The position numbers and the translations under genes were made by a program. From positions 55,646-119,645 of the forward strand of contig JBBJNV010000003.1 in the NCBI GenBank assembly GCA_037721215.1: DNA of 64,000 nt. The letters run 5' to 3'. Within the stretch, counting starts at the first letter, position 1. Each line of letters opens with the position of its first letter. This stretch comes from Gemmatimonadaceae bacterium (GTDB lineage Bacteria > Gemmatimonadota > Gemmatimonadetes > Gemmatimonadales > Gemmatimonadaceae). This document shows positions 29,217 to 37,698 of the stretch, piece after piece. Under the pieces are notes generated by a model that saw only the letters and a program-made list of their open reading frames with translations, searched no databases and was not told where the DNA came from.

Positions 29217-31079
29217 TCAGACCACTTCCGCGAGAAGCTGATACATCTCCCGCGCATTCGTGGTCGCGTAATTCGCGTGATTGTTGTTGAAGGTCAGATG
29301 AACCCGCATCGCTCCATCGGCCGCGCGTTGAATGGCTGAGAGCCACGACGCAAGCTGCGTCTGCTGATACAGGTATCGGTATCGCTCTGTGACAATTTCA
29401 TTCCGCGTTTCCCACGTCGCGGTCCGCCGGCCGTGAAGCCGGATGATCGCCAGATCGGAATTGGTCACCTCGAATGTCGGCGGCATGCTGCTCTCCATGC
29501 CCGGCGGGGCATCGACCGCCACATAGCTGAATGACAGCTCGCGCAACAATCTGAAAGTTCGCGGCGCGATGCGGTCCGACAGCCAGTCCCGGTGCCGCAG
29601 CTCGACCGATGCCGGCATGTCGCCGAGGTGCTCGCGTGCCTCGCTCAGCCTGGCGGCGGCTTCGCGAGTAGGAGTAAACCAGCGCGGATACTGCAACATG
29701 ATCGCACCCAGCTTGCCCGCCGCATGCAAAGGCGCGAGGGCCGAGAGGAAACGCTGCCAGACTTCGTCAATTGCCTCGCGCGAGAAATGATGCGAATACA
29801 CATTGCGCGCGGCGCGAAGCCGGATTGGAAGATCTTCCTTCAGCCAGGGCGGCAGCCGCTCGGCACTGGTTGGGTGGCCCGTCATCAGAGCATGTGCCTT
29901 GATGTCGAAGCAAAAATGATCCGGAGTTCGTTCCACCCAGCGGCGTGCCGTCTCCTCGGAGGGCATTGCGTAATAAGTCGCGTCGACTTCGACCATCGAC
30001 AGCTGTGACGCGTAAAACCGCAGTCGCGGCTCGGGATTTGTTGCCCCCGGTGGATAAAACACATCGTCAGCGATGAGCGTTGGATCGGTCCATCCCGCTA
30101 CACCAGTGAATATTTCACTGCCCTTCCACTTCAGAGGAGCCGCAGCACACAGGGGCAGCGCATCGGCACGCCGGCGAGCCACTGTCCACCCGGGATCATG
30201 CACTGGATGCCAGCCCGATTCGGAAACCGCGGGTGCCGATGCCGCCATGGATTCGATTGCGTCGAGATCATCGGGAATCGGTGTTGGCGGAGCAAGCGTC
30301 TGCGCAATCATCGCCGCGACACGGCCCGGCGCCTCACGTGTAAGCGTTCCGATGAGCGCCGCCTCGGGAAGATTCTTCCAGTAACGCACCGGCATTTCGG
30401 CGCGCATGGCAGTTCGGTTGAGACGCGCGGGATTGAAGATCGCGGCATAGTACGTCCGCCAGAGCTCGTCCTGCGAATCCTCATCCGTGGGCGCGAGGTG
30501 GCGCTCGATGCCGTCGCTCAATTGCAACGATTCTCCGTCCCACCGCGCGCACCCGTCTGGCGTGAGTATGGACCACCGCATCGATGGAAAACGCCTGACG
30601 AAGAAGGGGGCGGTACGCTCCACTACGCAGTGCGCTGGCTCGAACCAGGAGACAAACTCTTCCTCATCGCTATCCGGATGTCTCATAGCGCGAAAGCGAA
30701 CGAACGCCTTCATTTTGTGCGCTGCGCGCCGTACCGCTCGATGCATGTGTATCAATCGATGAACAAGCGGATCTGACGCAACCTGAAGGATGTGGCTCTC
30801 GCCATGCGTTAGCCGCCACAACAGACTGTAAAGCAGCGACCATCGGACAGGATCGCGATTGCATGCTACGCTGCCTGCAAGTGCGACGAAGTGCCGCGGC
30901 ACGCGCATGCTGCCAAGATCATGGGCGGCTTCAGTGATCGGATCGCCAAAAAGGCGTGTCGCGGAGCCGTCGTCAAACCACTCGAGCTGGTCAGGAGGAA
31001 TCTGCGCTGCCAGCGACCGGCGGGCATCCCTGCGCCATCGGCTCAAACGCTCCGGAACCATGACTGCGGCAGTGATCAC
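29217..31079 (-). CDS. DUF4130 (TIGR03915-type DNA-repair-associated)-DUF72 fusion protein
   Basis: About aa 10-260: HKMKAFVRFR, WFEPAH, YYAAIFNPARL, YWKNLPEA. From aa 322 (30116): GVAGW, VEVDATYYAMP, FDIKAH, QYP, VELRH, RLHGR, FNNN. No stop between the domains. Confidence 0.9.
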   Translation of the reverse strand: MITAAVMVPERLSRWRRDARRSLAAQIPPDQLEWFDDGSATRLFGDPITEAAHDLGSMRVPRHFVALAGSVACNRDPVRWSLLYSLLWRLTHGESHILQVASDPLVHRLIHMHRAVRRAAHKMKAFVRFRAMRHPDSDEEEFVSWFEPAHCVVERTAPFFVRRFPSMRWSILTPDGCARWDGESLQLSDGIERHLAPTDEDSQDELWRTYYAAIFNPARLNRTAMRAEMPVRYWKNLPEAALIGTLTREAPGRVAAMIAQTLAPPTPIPDDLDAIESMAASAPAVSESGWHPVHDPGWTVARRRADALPLCAAAPLKWKGSEIFTGVAGWTDPTLIADDVFYPPGATNPEPRLRFYASQLSMVEVDATYYAMPSEETARRWVERTPDHFCFDIKAHALMTGHPTSAERLPPWLKEDLPIRLRAARNVYSHHFSREAIDEVWQRFLSALAPLHAAGKLGAIMLQYPRWFTPTREAAARLSEAREHLGDMPASVELRHRDWLSDRIAPRTFRLLRELSFSYVAVDAPPGMESSMPPTFEVTNSDLAIIRLHGRRTATWETRNEIVTERYRYLYQQTQLASWLSAIQRAADGAMRVHLTFNNNHANYATTNAREMYQLLAEVV

Positions 31080-32350
31080 AATTCGCCGGTGCGTGCCGCC
31101 ACTGCAGGGGAAGACCAGAGATCGAGCTGGCCTGACGTTCTGACCCGGTGCAGGAGGTGAGACGATTCGGGATCCAGACGACCCGGCGTGTAGTCGGCGG
31201 TAGTGATGAACGGCCGAGCTCGCGATAACGCGACCTGGAGCCGTTGCAGATCATCCATTCGGAGTCGTGTCCAGCGTCGAGCGGCGATAATCCGCTTGAC
31301 GCTGCGTACGCCGATACCGGGGATGCGTAGCAGCTCCTCCTTCGGCGCGACGTTGACGTCCATCGGGAATCGATCGCGATTGCGAAGAGCCCACGCAAGC
31401 TTCGGGTCGAAGTCAAGCTCGAGGTTGGGAGTCGCGAGCGTGGTGAGCTCATTCACCCCGAACCCGTAGAACCGCATCAACCAGTCCGCCTGATAAAGGC
31501 GATGCTCCCGCAGCAGTGGCGGAGCCGCAGCGGGCAGGACGTTCGATGCATCCGGAATGGGACTGAAGGCCGAGTAATACACGCGCTTCAGCTTTTGCTC
31601 GGCGTAAAGCTTTGCGGATGTCTGGAGCAATACCGAATCTGTTGCGTCAGTGGCCCCCACAATCATCTGGGTTGCCTGCCCAGCCGGGGAGAATGCTATC
31701 GGGCTGCGTGTAACTCCCGGGCGTTTGACCTGTGCCTGATTCTCCCGGGCTTCGGCGATACCGTCACGGATCGTACCCATCGCCCGAGTGATCTGCACGA
31801 GATTTTTTTCTGGAGCCAGTGCGTCGAGATCGTTCTGGCGTGGAAGCTCCACGTTGATGCTGAGGCGATCTGCCCAGCGTCCGGCTTCGCGGATCAGTTC
31901 CGGCGCCGCGCTGGGAATGGTCTTCAGATGGATGTAGCCCGCGAATCCGTGGGTAAGCCGCAGCGTTTTCGCGACGGCAATGAGCTGCTCCATCGTGTAG
32001 TCCGAGTCACGGATAATGCCCGAGCTGAGAAACAGGCCCTCAATGTAATTTCGACGGTAGAAGTCGAGGGTGAGCCGGACTACTTCGTCGGGAGTGAAAC
32101 GGGCCCGCCGAACGCCGCTGGACCGACGGTTGATGCAATAAGAGCAATCGTAAATGCAGAAGTTCGTCAGAAGGATTTTCAGCAGCGATACGCAGCGTCC
32201 ATCGGGCGTGTAACTATGGCAAATGCCGGTGCCCTCGGTCGATCCAATTGCGTTTTTGGCCGCCTTTCGCCCCTTGGCCCCGCTGCTTGCACACGATGCA
32301 TCGTACTTGGCGGCATCGGCGAGAATCGCGAGTTTCCCGATGATTGTCAT
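31076..32350 (-). CDS. Putative DNA modification/repair radical SAM protein with HhH (TIGR03916 type)
   Basis: ATG at 32350; LADAAKYDASC, CIYDCSYC, YIHLK, RLYQADWL, LLRIPGIG HhH; GTGA overlap with the downstream fusion gene. Confidence 0.93.
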   Translation of the reverse strand: MTIIGKLAILADAAKYDASCASSGAKGRKAAKNAIGSTEGTGICHSYTPDGRCVSLLKILLTNFCIYDCSYCINRRSSGVRRARFTPDEVVRLTLDFYRRNYIEGLFLSSGIIRDSDYTMEQLIAVAKTLRLTHGFAGYIHLKTIPSAAPELIREAGRWADRLSINVELPRQNDLDALAPEKNLVQITRAMGTIRDGIAEARENQAQVKRPGVTRSPIAFSPAGQATQMIVGATDATDSVLLQTSAKLYAEQKLKRVYYSAFSPIPDASNVLPAAAPPLLREHRLYQADWLMRFYGFGVNELTTLATPNLELDFDPKLAWALRNRDRFPMDVNVAPKEELLRIPGIGVRSVKRIIAARRWTRLRMDDLQRLQVALSRARPFITTADYTPGRLDPESSHLLHRVRTSGQLDLWSSPAVAARTGEL

Positions 32351-32513
32351 GCACCGAAGATAAGCCGAAACACAGCCTGGATCAACGCGCGCGCCGATCT
32401 CGAGCCAAGTCTGATCCAACTCTGACTCTGGGATGAGGCCGGGATGAGGGGTGATGCGCAGTATACGCACGCAGGCGCGCTGTGAAATACTCACATCTAC
32501 TACGGCGGCACTC

Positions 32514-34257
32514 ATGTTTGTACCAAACACCTACTTCGCGGCCGTCCGCTTTGGCGTTGCTGCAATCCTGACAGTCGGATGCAGTGAGCCCTCTGGCCCT
32601 GGAGGCACCGCCGAGGCCAGAACGATCCGTGTAAATATCGCAACGACAGGCGCCCCCGCAGACCTCGATCGGGACGGCTATACTCTCAGCTTCGATGGCG
32701 GGGTGGGCCGACCTGTTTCTGGCAACATTGCGGTGCTGATACCCGACGTATCACCGGGCGCGCATCTGGTGGAGCTCAGCGGCCTGGCGCCAAACTGTTC
32801 AATTGATGGTACCAACCCGCGCTCGGTGGACGTGACCGGAAACGACACAACAGCTCCGATTTTTGTGTCCTTCTCCGTTTTCTGCATCCCGATGACGGGT
32901 AGTATCCGGGTATCGACCGTTACATCGGGTCCCGACACGGATTCGGACGGTTATCTGGTGTTTTTGCCGTCCGTTCCACCTATCAAATTCCCGGCGAATG
33001 GGTACGCAAACGATCGCGGGGATCAGGGTCGGTCAATATCAGGTCGGCCTGAGCGGTGTGGCTGACAACTGTAGCGTCGATCAGCCCAGTCCAAGGGTGA
33101 CGGTTGCGTACGGCCAGACGGTCGACGTGTCGTTTGCAATTAGCTGCGTCACAGCAGGGACCTTTCAGGTGACGACAACTACTACCGGGGTCGTGCTCGA
33201 TTCGAACGGATACTATATCCAAATCAAGAGGCAAGGTTCAAATAGTAGTGCAGGCGCTAACACTCCAGTGAATGGGACGGTCACTCTCGGCAGCCTGCTC
33301 CCCGGTGACTACCTGCTCACGCTTTTCGATGTAGCGCCGAATTGCGATCCGGTGACGCCGAGCCCGCGTGTGGTTACCGTCGGCGCGGGAAGTCCGACTC
33401 AGATTGTCGTGGACGTTCGGTGCTCAACTCCTGCACAGCTCGCATTCGTAAAAGTTGTCACCGCCAACAATCGCGAGATCATGGTGATCAACTCCAATGG
33501 CACCGGTGAGAGGCAACTAACCTTCGAGCCTTCGGCGGATGTTGATCCTGCGTGGTCGCCGGACGGTAACAGGATTGCTTTCGCCAGCGACCGTGACGGC
33601 AACCGCGAGGTTTACGTGATGAACGCGGACGGCTCGGCCCAGGTCCGACTCACCAGCACTGCTTCGGGAGACTATCATCCAGCCTGGTCGCCCGACGGCC
33701 GGAGGATTGCCTTCGTCAGCGAGCGCAACGGCAATGCCGAGATCTATGTGATGAATGCCGACGGTACGAATCCTCTGCGTCTCACGAGCGACAGCGCGAC
33801 CGACGATGACCCTGCGTGGTCGCCCGATGGACGCCGAATCGCGTTCCGAAGTGGCAGGACGGGGGGAGGGGATATCTATGTGATGAATGCGGACGGCTCG
33901 GAGCAGAGCCGCCTCACAACGAACATTTATCCAGACGCTCAGCCGTCATGGTCGCCAGCCGGAACCAGAATCGCATACTCCGGTGGCGTATCATCTTCAT
34001 TGCGCGATATATATGTGATAAACACCGACGGCACAGGGTCGACGCGTTTCATGCTGGAGTATCTTTTGCCCGAAGACCCGACGTGGTCCCCAGATGGGCG
34101 CAAGATCGTTATCGCCGGGCTCTATTCCGATTATTATTACGACGACGTCTCTCTAATTCAGATTGTCACGGCGAACGGTACCCCGCATTCCACGACAATC
34201 GAGGGTAACGCCCCCACACGGGTCACTCACGTCTCCCAGCCGACTTGGCGGCCGTGA
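32514..34257 (+). pseudogene. TolB/PD40-repeat lipoprotein interrupted by a +1 frameshift near 33000
   Basis: Lipobox LTVGC in the first frame; homologous SGxAxNC repeats in both frames; AATGGGTACG has one extra G; WSPDG repeats in the second frame. Could be a sequencing error. Confidence 0.75.
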
Positions 34258-34303: not shown

Positions 34304-35530
34304 TTACGGACAAACCCCTGCGGCCGGACCGACTACAGCGAGCGCGTTCGCCACTGGCCGTTCGCCGGTGGCGTCTGACGGCCGGTTAACAAATCGGCCG
34401 TTGACAACCATGGTGGTGGAGCCACCACCATCGGTATTCATTGCCTCCATGGCACCGAGTCGCGTGAGCAGGGCCGTAAGCTCGATGAGTGTCATCCCGG
34501 CGCTATAGCCGGGCTGACGGCCGTCGACGGTAACGAGTAGCACTTTCCGGTCGCCCGTCACTGCGAACGCGGTGCGCGGATGTCGCTCGGCGGCGACAGT
34601 GCCGGCAAATGGTGCGAGGCTGATTCCGGCGCGCAACAACTGCGGATCGCCGGCAATCATCTCGGCGACTGCCGCTGGCGCGGCCGGGAAGCGCATCACC
34701 CACGAGATGGTATCGCCGACCGCAATGTTGGCGCGGAGATAAGCAGCGCCTCGTCCCTTTCCAGCGAGCACCATACCGTCGCTGGGAATGGCAACTCCGG
34801 CGGGCACGGTGTCGATACTTTGTGCTACCGCGCGAACCGTGTCTCCCACACCAGGCGCGCGCCGAATGATCCGCGCGACGACCTCTACTGCGGCCTCTGC
34901 GTCGAGAGTAGTCGGCCCGACGAACCTGTTGTAGAGAGCGATACGAAGCGTATCGGGTTGCTCGTTGACGCGGCGCATCTCTGAGGTCACACCGCGCCGC
35001 GAGCGAAGCGTTCCGGTGAGTTGATCGGCACCGAAGAAGGTGGTAGCCGTAGTCGTGACGCCGAATACGGGGCGGCTTGTGTAACCACGCAGCGGCTCGC
35101 CTTCGGTAACCTGTGTACCGCTCGGGTAGCCGGCCGGCGTGAAACTGAAGTAGTCTCCGTTGACGGCGGCAAATACCGGGCGGTTCAACCGGTTCGCAAG
35201 ACGCGCAGAGAGTTGCGTCGTAGTTTCGCGTCCTACCAGTTGATCGAGCGCCTTCACTGTTCGGAGCGCCACACCGCATCGCGCAAGGTCGATCTCTACA
35301 ATATTTACCGCCCACGGTCCGGCGACTTCCCAGCGAAACGTATGACGAACGCCGGGAGCAATGTCGAATGAACGAATCGTGTCCGTGGGGACGCTCGGCA
35401 CTGGAGTTGGCGCAGGCGCGGGCGCCGTAACGGGCCGCGGCTCGGAACAGCTGAGCGCGGCGAGCAGTGCAACTGCGAGATGGCAGCGCGCAAGCGTTGT
35501 TCGGCCGATAAGGGGCGGGGTGATCTTCAT
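34304..35530 (-). CDS. Phosphodiester glycosidase (NAGPA-like) lipoprotein
   Basis: AAVNGDYF, RHPRTA, VTVDGRQ, NTDGGGST; lipobox LSC. Confidence 0.9.
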   Translation of the reverse strand: MKITPPLIGRTTLARCHLAVALLAALSCSEPRPVTAPAPAPTPVPSVPTDTIRSFDIAPGVRHTFRWEVAGPWAVNIVEIDLARCGVALRTVKALDQLVGRETTTQLSARLANRLNRPVFAAVNGDYFSFTPAGYPSGTQVTEGEPLRGYTSRPVFGVTTTATTFFGADQLTGTLRSRRGVTSEMRRVNEQPDTLRIALYNRFVGPTTLDAEAAVEVVARIIRRAPGVGDTVRAVAQSIDTVPAGVAIPSDGMVLAGKGRGAAYLRANIAVGDTISWVMRFPAAPAAVAEMIAGDPQLLRAGISLAPFAGTVAAERHPRTAFAVTGDRKVLLVTVDGRQPGYSAGMTLIELTALLTRLGAMEAMNTDGGGSTTMVVNGRFVNRPSDATGERPVANALAVVGPAAGVCP

Positions 35531-35678
35531 GTGAATCCGGGCCTCCGCTCTTCCAAGGTTTGCAGCGTGTGTGCTGATGCAAGAAGGCGCAAAGACAATA
35601 TGAGTGCCCTCCATCTCAGGCGCCACTGACCTTGCTCGATTACCGGGCGATCACACGCTGGCGCCCGACTTGCGAAGT

Positions 35679-35723
35679 GTGTCCGTTCGAACGGTGTCCG
35701 TTCGATGAAAAGTGTTCGTTTCA
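35679..35723 (+). repeat. Direct repeats upstream of the L,D-transpeptidase gene
   Basis: GTGTCCGTTCGA at 35679 and 35694, degenerate GTGTTCGTTTCA at 35712; palindrome CCGTTCGAACGG at 35683-35694. Confidence 0.6.
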
Positions 35724-35742
35724 TGTAGAAGAGGAAGCAACC

Positions 35743-36435
35743 ATGTACCGAAGCAACCGAGTCAAGCTCATCGTCGGATTTGCCGTCACGCTCGCAACTG
35801 CTGGATGCGTCAGCTCGAACGACGACGAAAACGCCGTGCCGGCCGACAGCGCCGGGATCCCCAGGACTGTAACCACCGTGCCGGCCACGCCTGATTCCGT
35901 GGCCATGCCCGTGGCGCCTCCCGATTCGGTGGCGATGGTGCCTCCTGCAGCGCCTGTCTCCGACATGCGCCTCGAAGTGGATCTGGCTGCCAGAAAACTC
36001 TACGCGTACAAGGGCAGCGAGCGAGTTGCGACGCATTCTGTTGGGGTGGGATCGAAGGAGTGGCCGACAAAAACAGGCGAGTGGAGGGTGACTCAGGTGG
36101 TCTTCAACCCCGAGTGGGTTCCACCCGACGAAACGTGGGCGGAGGAGAAGGAGCCGCGCGAGCCAGGCGACCCGAAGAACCCGCTCGGAAGGATTCAGCT
36201 GGTGTATGATCCTCCGCGCTCGATCCACGGTACAAACGCCCCTTCCTCGATCGGCAAGGCGATCTCGCATGGCTCGATCCGCGTGACGAACCAGGTCGGG
36301 CTGAAAGTCGCGAAACAGTTGCTGGAATCGGCCGGAGTCGGCAAGGATTCAGCGTGGTACAAGGAGGCTGCGCAGAATCGATCGGTGAAGCAGATTGTGG
36401 ACCTCCCGGGAGGGGTACCGATAAAGGTGTTTTAG
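35743..36435 (+). CDS. L,D-transpeptidase (YkuD) lipoprotein, catalytic Cys replaced by Ser
   Basis: ATG after GAGGAAG; lipobox TAGC; NPEWVPP, NPLG, SIHGTN, SHGSIRV. Confidence 0.88.
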   Translation: MYRSNRVKLIVGFAVTLATAGCVSSNDDENAVPADSAGIPRTVTTVPATPDSVAMPVAPPDSVAMVPPAAPVSDMRLEVDLAARKLYAYKGSERVATHSVGVGSKEWPTKTGEWRVTQVVFNPEWVPPDETWAEEKEPREPGDPKNPLGRIQLVYDPPRSIHGTNAPSSIGKAISHGSIRVTNQVGLKVAKQLLESAGVGKDSAWYKEAAQNRSVKQIVDLPGGVPIKVF

Positions 36436-36543
36436 GGCTTTACTTCCGGGCCGCATCCAACCCGATGCCGCGTACAGGCTGCGTGGCGACGATACCGTAC
36501 CGGTCTCGAGAACGGACAAGACTCCAGAAAGGACATTTGACCG

Positions 36544-37698
36544 ATGCCAATCGTGGCCGGCAGGATTTTGCCAGCGTTGCTGCCGGTAGCACTGCTCCTG
36601 GTGGTCGCTCAGACAGGCTCCGCGCAGAGCGCGGATACCGCCGTTCGTGAGGCCTGGTGGCATCGGATATCTGCCGGAGGCGACATGCGCCTACGCATGG
36701 AAACGTTTCAGCAGGACAGCGCATTCGACCGGTTTCGCGGCAGGGTGAGGCTGCGGGTCTCGGCTGGCGCGCGGATCAACAAGGATTTCGATGTAGGTGT
36801 GCGTCTGGCGACGGGAAGTCCGTCGGAACTGACCTCAACCAATCAGACATTCGGGCAATGGGGAACACGCAAGCCTGTCACGCTCGACCGGGCGTTCGCG
36901 GTTTATCATCCATCCCGAATTCCGGCATTACGTATTGGCGCAGGCAAGTTTGCGTATCCGGTGCGGCTGACGAACATGATCTGGGACGAAAACCTCAGTT
37001 GGGAAGGCGCGTACGAGCAGCTGGGGACATCCAGGGGCGGCGTTGATTTCAAACTGACTGCGGTGCAGTCGCAGATGAACGAGTTGCGCCGGGCGAAGGA
37101 CTCATATCTTTACGTCGAGTCTGCCGAGTTGCGGTTTGCTACCGGGCGTTACCGCACCGGGCTCACTGTGTCGTCACTGAAGTTTACCAATCCGGATCCG
37201 CTTGCCGTTGACATCGACAATAATGTGCTCAACGGCCGGAGTACTAATCGTCTGGAGCGCAACGCGAGCGGGTCGGTGACCGGGTATGCCTCTGACTTCA
37301 ATCAGATCGACCTGATAGCCGACGTTGCGGCAGAAACCGGGCGCAAGGGATATCCCATCAAAGCCACCGCGGATTTCGTGAGGAATCTGGACGCATCTAC
37401 GGAAGACGATTCCGGCATATGGATTGAAGGACAGTACGGCGAGGCGAAGGCGATCCGCAGCTTCATGGTCGGATATACCTTTGCGCGCATCGAACAGGAT
37501 GCCGCGCTCGGGGCGTTTGTGTTTGACGACATGCTCGGCTCGAACGCAGTCATGCATCGCCCGTTCGTCTCCTATGTACCGCTGGCGAATGTCAACGTCG
37601 ATGTCGGCTTGATTTTCTCCAGGTGGATCAAACCGCGGCCAGAAGACAACAACAACCTGTTGACCCGCGTTCAGCTGAGTGCGCGCGCGCTTTTCTGA
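36544..37698 (+). CDS. Putative porin
   Basis: Signal peptide, GDMRLRME, STNQTFG, WDENLSWEG, C-terminal Phe. Confidence 0.8.
   Translation: MPIVAGRILPALLPVALLLVVAQTGSAQSADTAVREAWWHRISAGGDMRLRMETFQQDSAFDRFRGRVRLRVSAGARINKDFDVGVRLATGSPSELTSTNQTFGQWGTRKPVTLDRAFAVYHPSRIPALRIGAGKFAYPVRLTNMIWDENLSWEGAYEQLGTSRGGVDFKLTAVQSQMNELRRAKDSYLYVESAELRFATGRYRTGLTVSSLKFTNPDPLAVDIDNNVLNGRSTNRLERNASGSVTGYASDFNQIDLIADVAAETGRKGYPIKATADFVRNLDASTEDDSGIWIEGQYGEAKAIRSFMVGYTFARIEQDAALGAFVFDDMLGSNAVMHRPFVSYVPLANVNVDVGLIFSRWIKPRPEDNNNLLTRVQLSARALF

Follow-up and report, generated by a model that had tools for sequence, protein, structure and literature searches.

A YkuD-domain lipoprotein gene and its surroundings

The window, the whole stretch of 64,000 nucleotides that was analysed, comes from a soil bacterium and includes at 35743-36435 on the forward strand a complete coding sequence of 230 codons plus a stop for a YkuD-domain lipoprotein with serine at the nucleophile position (Ser-type), here named P0001. 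The open reading frame extends from an ATG at 35743 to a TAG at 36433-36435 with no internal stops, and its start agrees with that of homologues of the same length. A Shine-Dalgarno-like AGAGGAAG (35730-35737, forward strand) was read from the sequence 5 nt 5' of the ATG, and no sigma-70-like promoter was detected in 35400-36800. The preliminary description had held the gene to be intact apart from its active-site codon, and the uninterrupted 230-codon frame agrees with this. An antisense ORF of 247 aa (35527-36270, reverse strand) overlaps the gene and similar ones were found in 29 related loci; rather than a gene, it is most readily seen as a by-product of high G+C content.

The protein starts with a signal peptide (35743-35808, forward strand) in which a basic n-region and then a hydrophobic h-region lead to a lipobox (…LATAG-C22). 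The lipobox residue, Cys22 (TGC, 35806-35808), is the sole cysteine of P0001. As it has a signal peptide, P0001 would be extracytoplasmic, like the ErfK/YbiS- and YcbB-type L,D-transpeptidases, and we infer that it is lipidated and sorted to a membrane. A low-complexity linker rich in Ala, Pro, Ser, Thr and Asp, predicted from pLDDT to be disordered (residues 23-73; 35809-35961, forward strand), connects the lipobox to a YkuD-fold domain with a C-terminal helix-helix-strand extension (residues 74-230; 35962-36432, forward strand), which was delimited using an AlphaFold2 model and Foldseek. Three forward-strand features of the domain are central here. They are Ser160 (TCG, 36220-36222), which lies two residues ahead of the catalytic His and is coupled to Ser at the nucleophile position; His162-Gly163 (CAC GGT, 36226-36231); and the motif S175-H176-G177-S178-I179-R180 (36265-36282), in which the alignment places Ser178 (TCG, 36274-36276) where the nucleophilic Cys is expected.

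The immediate neighbours of the gene, a divergent gene for a NAGPA-family phosphodiester glycosidase (34304-35626, reverse strand) and one for a Porin_5 putative porin (36544-37698, forward strand), both encode envelope proteins. Neither of these window neighbours, nor prfC, adjoins the Ser-type gene in 80 related loci. Unrelated genes, for a PQQ dehydrogenase, a histidine kinase, a GH3 glycosidase, an Mrp/Nuo subunit, an FKBP or a radical SAM protein, were found next to it elsewhere, and within the genus prfC alone is syntenic. A conserved operon was considered as a clue to function and rejected, the recurrent neighbours being antisense-ORF artefacts or unrelated genes. Further upstream in the window, a PD40/WD40-like beta-propeller protein with a carboxypeptidase-regulatory-like N-terminal part is encoded at 32998-34257 (forward strand), and a second copy of its gene, 84% identical at the DNA level, is present in the same genome (G000:C8:137178-138433). 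At 29217-32530 on the reverse strand, a radical SAM gene is followed, with a 4-nt overlap, by a DUF4130-DUF72 fusion in a single 620-aa ORF. The pairing of radical SAM with DUF4130 resembles a putative DNA-repair or modification pair.

Serine in the nucleophile column

P0001 matches the Pfam YkuD profile (PF03734) over residues 76-195 with 60.4 bits, against a cut-off of 23.4 (E 3.8e-16). In an AlphaFold2 model based on 140 relatives, pLDDT is 94-98 over residues 71-230 and approximately 56-67 over the N-terminal 70. When this model was used as a Foldseek query, the top matches were YcbB, Vibrio cholerae LdtA and Bacillus subtilis YkuD (E 1e-11 to 1e-10), and the match probability was 1.00 for these three and for LdtMt2. 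The profile and the predicted fold both place P0001 firmly in the YkuD superfamily.

Catalysis in YkuD enzymes relies on a Cys-His pair, and the backbone of the HGC motif provides the oxyanion hole. The ErfK/YbiS/YcfS/YnhG- and YcbB-type L,D-transpeptidases (PF03734; PDB 9tyw, 4lzh, 8da2, 6ntw/7kgm, 7ajo and 1y7m) have their fold in common with P0001 and share its core motifs, namely the NPxW.PP and PG.P.NP[LM]G loops, IHGT and S-H-G-x-[IVL]-R, with the catalytic His and Arg in equal columns. However, P0001 has Ser in place of Cys, Ser/Thr in place of Tyr/Phe/Leu two residues before the His (His-2, residue 160) and a domain free of cysteine, and it is a single-domain lipoprotein with a long linker and without LysM, PG_binding or Big domains. 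When P0001 was aligned using phmmer with the solved L,D-transpeptidases 9tyw, 8da2 and 4lzh, Ser178 matched the Cys of SHGC column for column. As SHGSIR of the query lies on SHGC[FIV]R of these enzymes, Ser178 occupies the nucleophile column.

The preliminary description had reported a His codon at 36226 in SIHGTN, a TCG codon at 36274 in SHGSIRV 16 residues later, and a distance of two substitutions between TCG and TGC or TGT. All of this was recovered from the sequence, with His162 encoded by CAC at 36226-36228. The nucleophilic Cys of the [ST]-x-G-C-x-[RN] motif is absent from P0001, where the motif reads S175-H-G-S178-I-R180, while the other class features of cysteine L,D-transpeptidases, a His with Gly, Ser or Asp after it (His162-Gly163) and an Arg or Asn two residues past the nucleophile (Arg180), are present. 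Judged by its motif, P0001 lacks the feature by which the catalytic class of cysteine L,D-transpeptidases is defined. His162 and Gly163 are invariant in 140/140 aligned relatives. Their roles, catalysis for the His and its orientation through a main-chain carbonyl for the Gly, as in solved enzymes, are assigned by analogy with His336 and Ser337 of LdtMt2 (PMC3605043).

The serine is not peculiar to this gene. HGS was found in 120/120 of the nearest proteins (52-95% identity; 90% clustering; JGI, ENA, NCBI and Logan sources). In an exhaustive HMMER search of 50%-identity cluster representatives, the top approximately 30 sequences that span the site, down to approximately 37% identity, have mostly HGS and in a few cases HGC or HGA, and HGC predominates lower in the list. 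One genome per GTDB species was scanned with clade-specific motifs that did not include the Ser site; of 102 relatives found, 80 were retained, and all 80 loci have Ser, encoded by TCC (43), TCG (33), TCA (3) or TCT (1). The same is true of 6/6 same-genus loci from five genomes, in which the codon is TCT, TCA or TCG. Indeed, every Ser codon seen in the species loci, the phylum-sample copies and the same-genus copies is TCN. As Ser is fixed while the third codon base drifts, selection acts on Ser itself. Only one Ala variant (P0153) was seen among approximately 40 Ser-type representative clusters at 50% identity, and at least one lineage therefore tolerates the loss of the hydroxyl.

A serine codon would also be seen here after an error in sequencing or assembly, or after a recent private mutation that has begun to inactivate an ordinary Cys enzyme, and nothing favours this beyond the general expectation of Cys in YkuD enzymes. 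The frame is intact and TCG is two steps from TGY. Ser was found in all 120 proteins from independent sources, in all 80 species loci (with four different TCN codons) and in same-genus genomes. A base-calling error is implausible because the Ser is conserved across independent assemblies. We regard the chance of an error or private mutation as negligible, and the homologue survey rules it out. The preliminary description had already considered a single-base error unlikely, and had allowed that all close homologues might have Cys. The opposite was seen, with Ser throughout the nearest relatives, and alignment of homologues revealed that HGSIR defines a deep clade (approximately 37-95% identity) with synonymous TCN variation and the mark of purifying selection.

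A compensating cysteine elsewhere in the protein was sought and rejected, as the only cysteine in P0001 is that of the lipobox and the domain contains none in 121/121 clade members. With the nucleophilic Cys replaced by Ser178, the mature protein would therefore have no free thiol. In the neighbouring residues of the loop, the relatives P0172, P0208, P0228, P0251 and P0144 have Arg for the His of S-H-G-[CS] (SRGC or SRGS), and P0179 has Gln. By these alignments, the catalytic loop of the subfamily is more variable than the textbook motifs suggest.

The assignment as a lipoprotein in the preliminary description extends to the clade, with a predicted lipobox in 116/121 members. The linker from the lipobox to the domain is rich in Ala, Thr, Pro and Ser and has a median length of 43 aa (range 28-66) across the clade. 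In P0001, linker residues approximately 48-68 (35885-35945, forward strand) form an imperfect direct duplication, PDSVAMPVAP then PDSVAMVPPA, which together with the range of linker lengths suggests that length is plastic through small duplications. Among the nearest Cys relatives only approximately 3-5/26 are lipoproteins. A search for longer, fused homologues at E <= 1e-20 returned none, which is weak negative evidence.

In the genome that contains the window (3.5 Mb, 97% complete), the Ser-type gene is one of five YkuD genes, and the other four have SHGC. Carriers found in the GTDB-species scan belong to Gemmatimonadaceae, Gemmatimonas, Gemmatirosa, Longimicrobium, Balneolales and Cyclonatronaceae and include the isolate Roseisolibacter sp. 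H3M3-2. When genomes were scanned at the DNA level for the pattern HGT-x11-HGS-x-R, control matches were similarly numerous and true matches were told apart by translation. In-frame copies were present in 7/400 other sampled genomes of the phylum (approximately 2%, some of the genomes being incomplete). Approximately 9/108 same-genus genomes match the domain part with 68-75% DNA identity, on contigs unrelated to prfC. Genomes in this comparison that are flagged as unpublished support none of the conclusions drawn here. Each of five same-genus genomes that were checked contains a Ser-type copy (60-64% identity) and an SHGC paralogue, and SHGC paralogues are present in every checked carrier genome. 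One same-genus genome, G498, contains two distinct Ser-type copies, G498:C379:13-525 (L097) and G498:C16:13-528 (L099), both at a contig start, which read HGTNDASS… and HGTNNASS…; the pair could be a true duplication, strain heterogeneity or an assembly split. Given the patchy occurrence, the SHGC paralogues and the unconserved neighbours, we conclude that the Ser-type gene is an accessory, stand-alone addition to the canonical L,D-transpeptidase set.

Phylogeny and the changes that accompany the serine

A maximum-likelihood tree was built from 140 domain sequences with the nucleophile column removed. All Ser-type sequences fell within one clade of 64 (support 97), mostly from Gemmatimonadota with some from Balneolales, together with 28 canonical Cys sequences that include a paralogue from the same genome, L002 (G000:C28:22576-22926). 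L002 and its clade are the nearest canonical SHGC relatives. They resemble the Ser-type proteins in their length (approximately 200-260 aa) and C-terminal helical extension, but have SHGC, YYIHGT and mostly an ordinary signal peptide without a lipobox. The window protein is in a pure-Ser clade of 16 sequences (support 99) with a stem length of 0.53, and a second Ser clade (support 97) is made up of 19 Ser, 4 Cys and 1 Ala sequences, the last being P0153. The unconstrained tree needs four state changes, or two if only well-supported branches are counted, and a single Ser clade was not rejected in an AU test (p 0.31). Thus, the tree is compatible with Ser having possibly arisen once or several times.

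Across 23 sequences from the window's clade (39-95% identity), G142, N146, P147, G149, Q152, L153, Y155, D156, P158, R159 and H162 are invariant, as are G163, T164, P167, S169, G171, H176, G177, S178, R180 and N183. The region from D/N145-N-P-L-G through Y155-D-x-P-R-[ST]-I-H-G-T to S-H-G-S-I-R-x-x-N183 is almost frozen, and H162, G163, T164, H176, G177, R180 and N183 are nearly invariant in the second Ser clade too. Relative to the nearest Cys relatives, the changes fixed in the window's clade are Q152 (from Lys), Y155 (Phe), D156 (Arg/Lys), R159 (Tyr) and S/T160 (Tyr); P167 is also a fixed change near the His strand on the stem branch of the pure-Ser clade. The long stem (0.53) and the fixed changes Q152, Y155, D156, R159 and P167 resemble a change of function rather than drift.

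Only the change at residue 160 is common to both Ser clades. Ser or Thr is found there in 40/40 Ser-type sequences (21 Ser, 19 Thr) compared with 1/108 Cys-type sequences, 72 of which have Tyr or Phe. At this position Ala, Asn or Arg is found in the four Cys sequences that fall within the second Ser clade, and the sole Ala-type sequence, P0153, retains Ser. The split between Ser and Thr shows that selection is for a hydroxyl. In the AlphaFold2 model residues 159-162 form a strand, and residues 160 and 162 would therefore be on the same strand face. An acidic residue able to polarise His162 and common to both Ser clades was not found in the alignment. D156 was considered as an acidic third member of a triad and was not adopted: outside the window's clade it is not fixed, and the strand alternation of the model probably turns it away from His162.

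Possible functions of the Ser-type proteins

Taken together, these comparisons describe what is, by sequence, a distinct and conserved subfamily of YkuD-fold lipoproteins in which Ser178 has stably taken the place of Cys and position His-2 has changed to Ser or Thr. The either/or reading of the preliminary description, a natural serine-nucleophile variant or a non-catalytic peptidoglycan-binding lipoprotein, is supported by the existence of the HGSIR clade. For the best of the explanations considered, that the domain is a remodelled, probably working Ser-His enzyme that acts on peptidoglycan stems from a lipid tether, we see about an even chance. The substrate and all of the chemistry of the Ser-type domain set out below are inferred. 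The N-terminal lipid would anchor the mature protein to the membrane, with the flexible linker of approximately 50 residues holding the domain, and the usual YkuD pocket would bind the tetrapeptide stem of peptidoglycan. Ser178 would form a dyad with His162, whose orientation would be set by the main-chain carbonyl of Gly163, and the backbone of H176-G177-S178 would be the oxyanion hole. An ester acyl-enzyme would be formed at the L-centre of the diamino acid with release of D-Ala. Water could then resolve it, giving L,D-carboxypeptidase or endopeptidase activity, or an amine could do so, giving transpeptidation or D-amino-acid exchange. Thiol oxidation and thiol-binding metals would not affect such an enzyme.

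Engineered enzymes provide the main evidence against the enzyme reading. LdtMt2 C354S (PDB 8pxy) and Ldtfm C442S (PDB 2hkl) have Ser at the equal position of the same fold. LdtMt2 C354S is inactive and gave no product with natural muropeptides and, according to earlier reports cited by that source, no covalent complex with several penems and carbapenems (PMC11410929). The statement in the preliminary description that Cys-to-Ser mutants are generally inactive is therefore documented for LdtMt2 C354S. A conserved His, Arg and oxyanion loop would be equally expected of a pure stem-peptide binder, which also counts against the enzyme reading. However, C354S and C442S are single laboratory substitutions without compensating changes, whereas in the natural proteins S/T160 is fixed in both Ser clades, and the window's clade has also fixed Q152, Y155, D156 and R159. 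By its aligned sequences, the natural clade is set apart from C354S by fixed changes beside the His strand, retention of the other catalytic residues and an essentially Ser-only site in approximately 240 sequences.

A precedent for His-helped, serine-dependent chemistry on a YkuD-superfamily scaffold is Lpg1514 of Legionella pneumophila, from the YafK/DpaA subfamily. It differs from P0001 in that its Ser132 is outside the canonical site, Cys174 is retained, the activity is slow beta-lactam hydrolysis and the subfamily is a different one (PMC13400389). The lipid-anchored architecture is already known from LdtMt2 and LdtMt5 (reviewed in PMC12729407), but those proteins use Cys and have Ig-like domains that separate the anchor from the catalytic domain.

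A substantial though lesser likelihood is that the protein is a pseudoenzyme, in which an intact YkuD pocket binds stem peptides non-covalently and the protein serves as a Pal-like membrane-to-wall tether or as a sensor or regulator of how much stem peptide is available. The loss of catalysis in LdtMt2 C354S (PMC11410929) is what this would predict, and the conserved combination of lipid anchor (lipobox in 116/121), flexible linker of approximately 43 aa and wall-binding domain, far commoner in the Ser type than in the nearest Cys relatives (approximately 3-5/26), would suit a tether. The one Ala variant in the sister Ser clade points the same way, and the canonical SHGC paralogues in every checked carrier genome could supply catalysis. 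However, pseudoenzymes usually lose several catalytic residues, with relaxation elsewhere once the nucleophile is gone, whereas here His162, Gly163, His176, Gly177 and Arg180 are invariant and Ser178 is fixed at 39-95% identity. The site is Ser in approximately 240 sequences and not a mixture of small residues, and a second hydroxyl has been co-selected at His-2, for which a pure binder has no obvious need. The co-evolved Ser/Thr at His-2 and the conserved remainder of the motif tilt the comparison towards a working active site.

Recruitment of the domain to another substrate, such as an envelope polymer or protein that contains D-amino acids or isopeptide links, with Ser providing a different chemistry, would fit the long stem branch and the fixed changes around the active-site strand, the accessory and patchy distribution and the lack of a cell-wall gene neighbourhood. 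As the lid and substrate-loop motifs of ErfK/YbiS-type enzymes (NPxWxPP, PGxxNP[LM]G) are fully kept and genuine peptidoglycan L,D-transpeptidases give the best structural matches, we consider it unlikely. A variant of the Ser-His enzyme would carry out the first half-reaction only, releasing D-Ala and leaving a long-lived ester acyl-enzyme, that is, a lipoprotein covalently attached to peptidoglycan. We consider this very unlikely; if true, a single thiol-free polypeptide would install itself as a tether between membrane and wall, in place of the two-component system of Lpp plus an L,D-transpeptidase. On a milder version of the enzyme reading, with the chances for and against evenly balanced, these proteins would be the first natural serine-nucleophile class of enzymes with the L,D-transpeptidase fold. 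A full-text literature search and a 2025 review yielded no description of a natural Ser-for-Cys YkuD protein, although absence there is no proof.

Ser-type proteins are annotated automatically as 'L,D-transpeptidase' or 'lipoprotein-anchoring transpeptidase ErfK/SrfK', an activity that is unproven for them, and the pair of Ser178 and Ser/Thr160 is a simple sequence signature by which they can be separated. L,D-transpeptidases are mechanistically defined by their Cys, which explains their inhibition by carbapenems, copper and thiol-reactive compounds and the interest in them as drug targets. An active clade would mean that Ser-His chemistry, which single-site mutagenesis had made to look impossible, can operate on the YkuD fold, and oxidants, metals and beta-lactams should then affect these proteins differently from the Cys enzymes. 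An inactive clade would be a widespread case in which an enzyme pocket has been reused, on a lipid tether, as a module that binds stem peptides, in diderm phyla that have been little studied.
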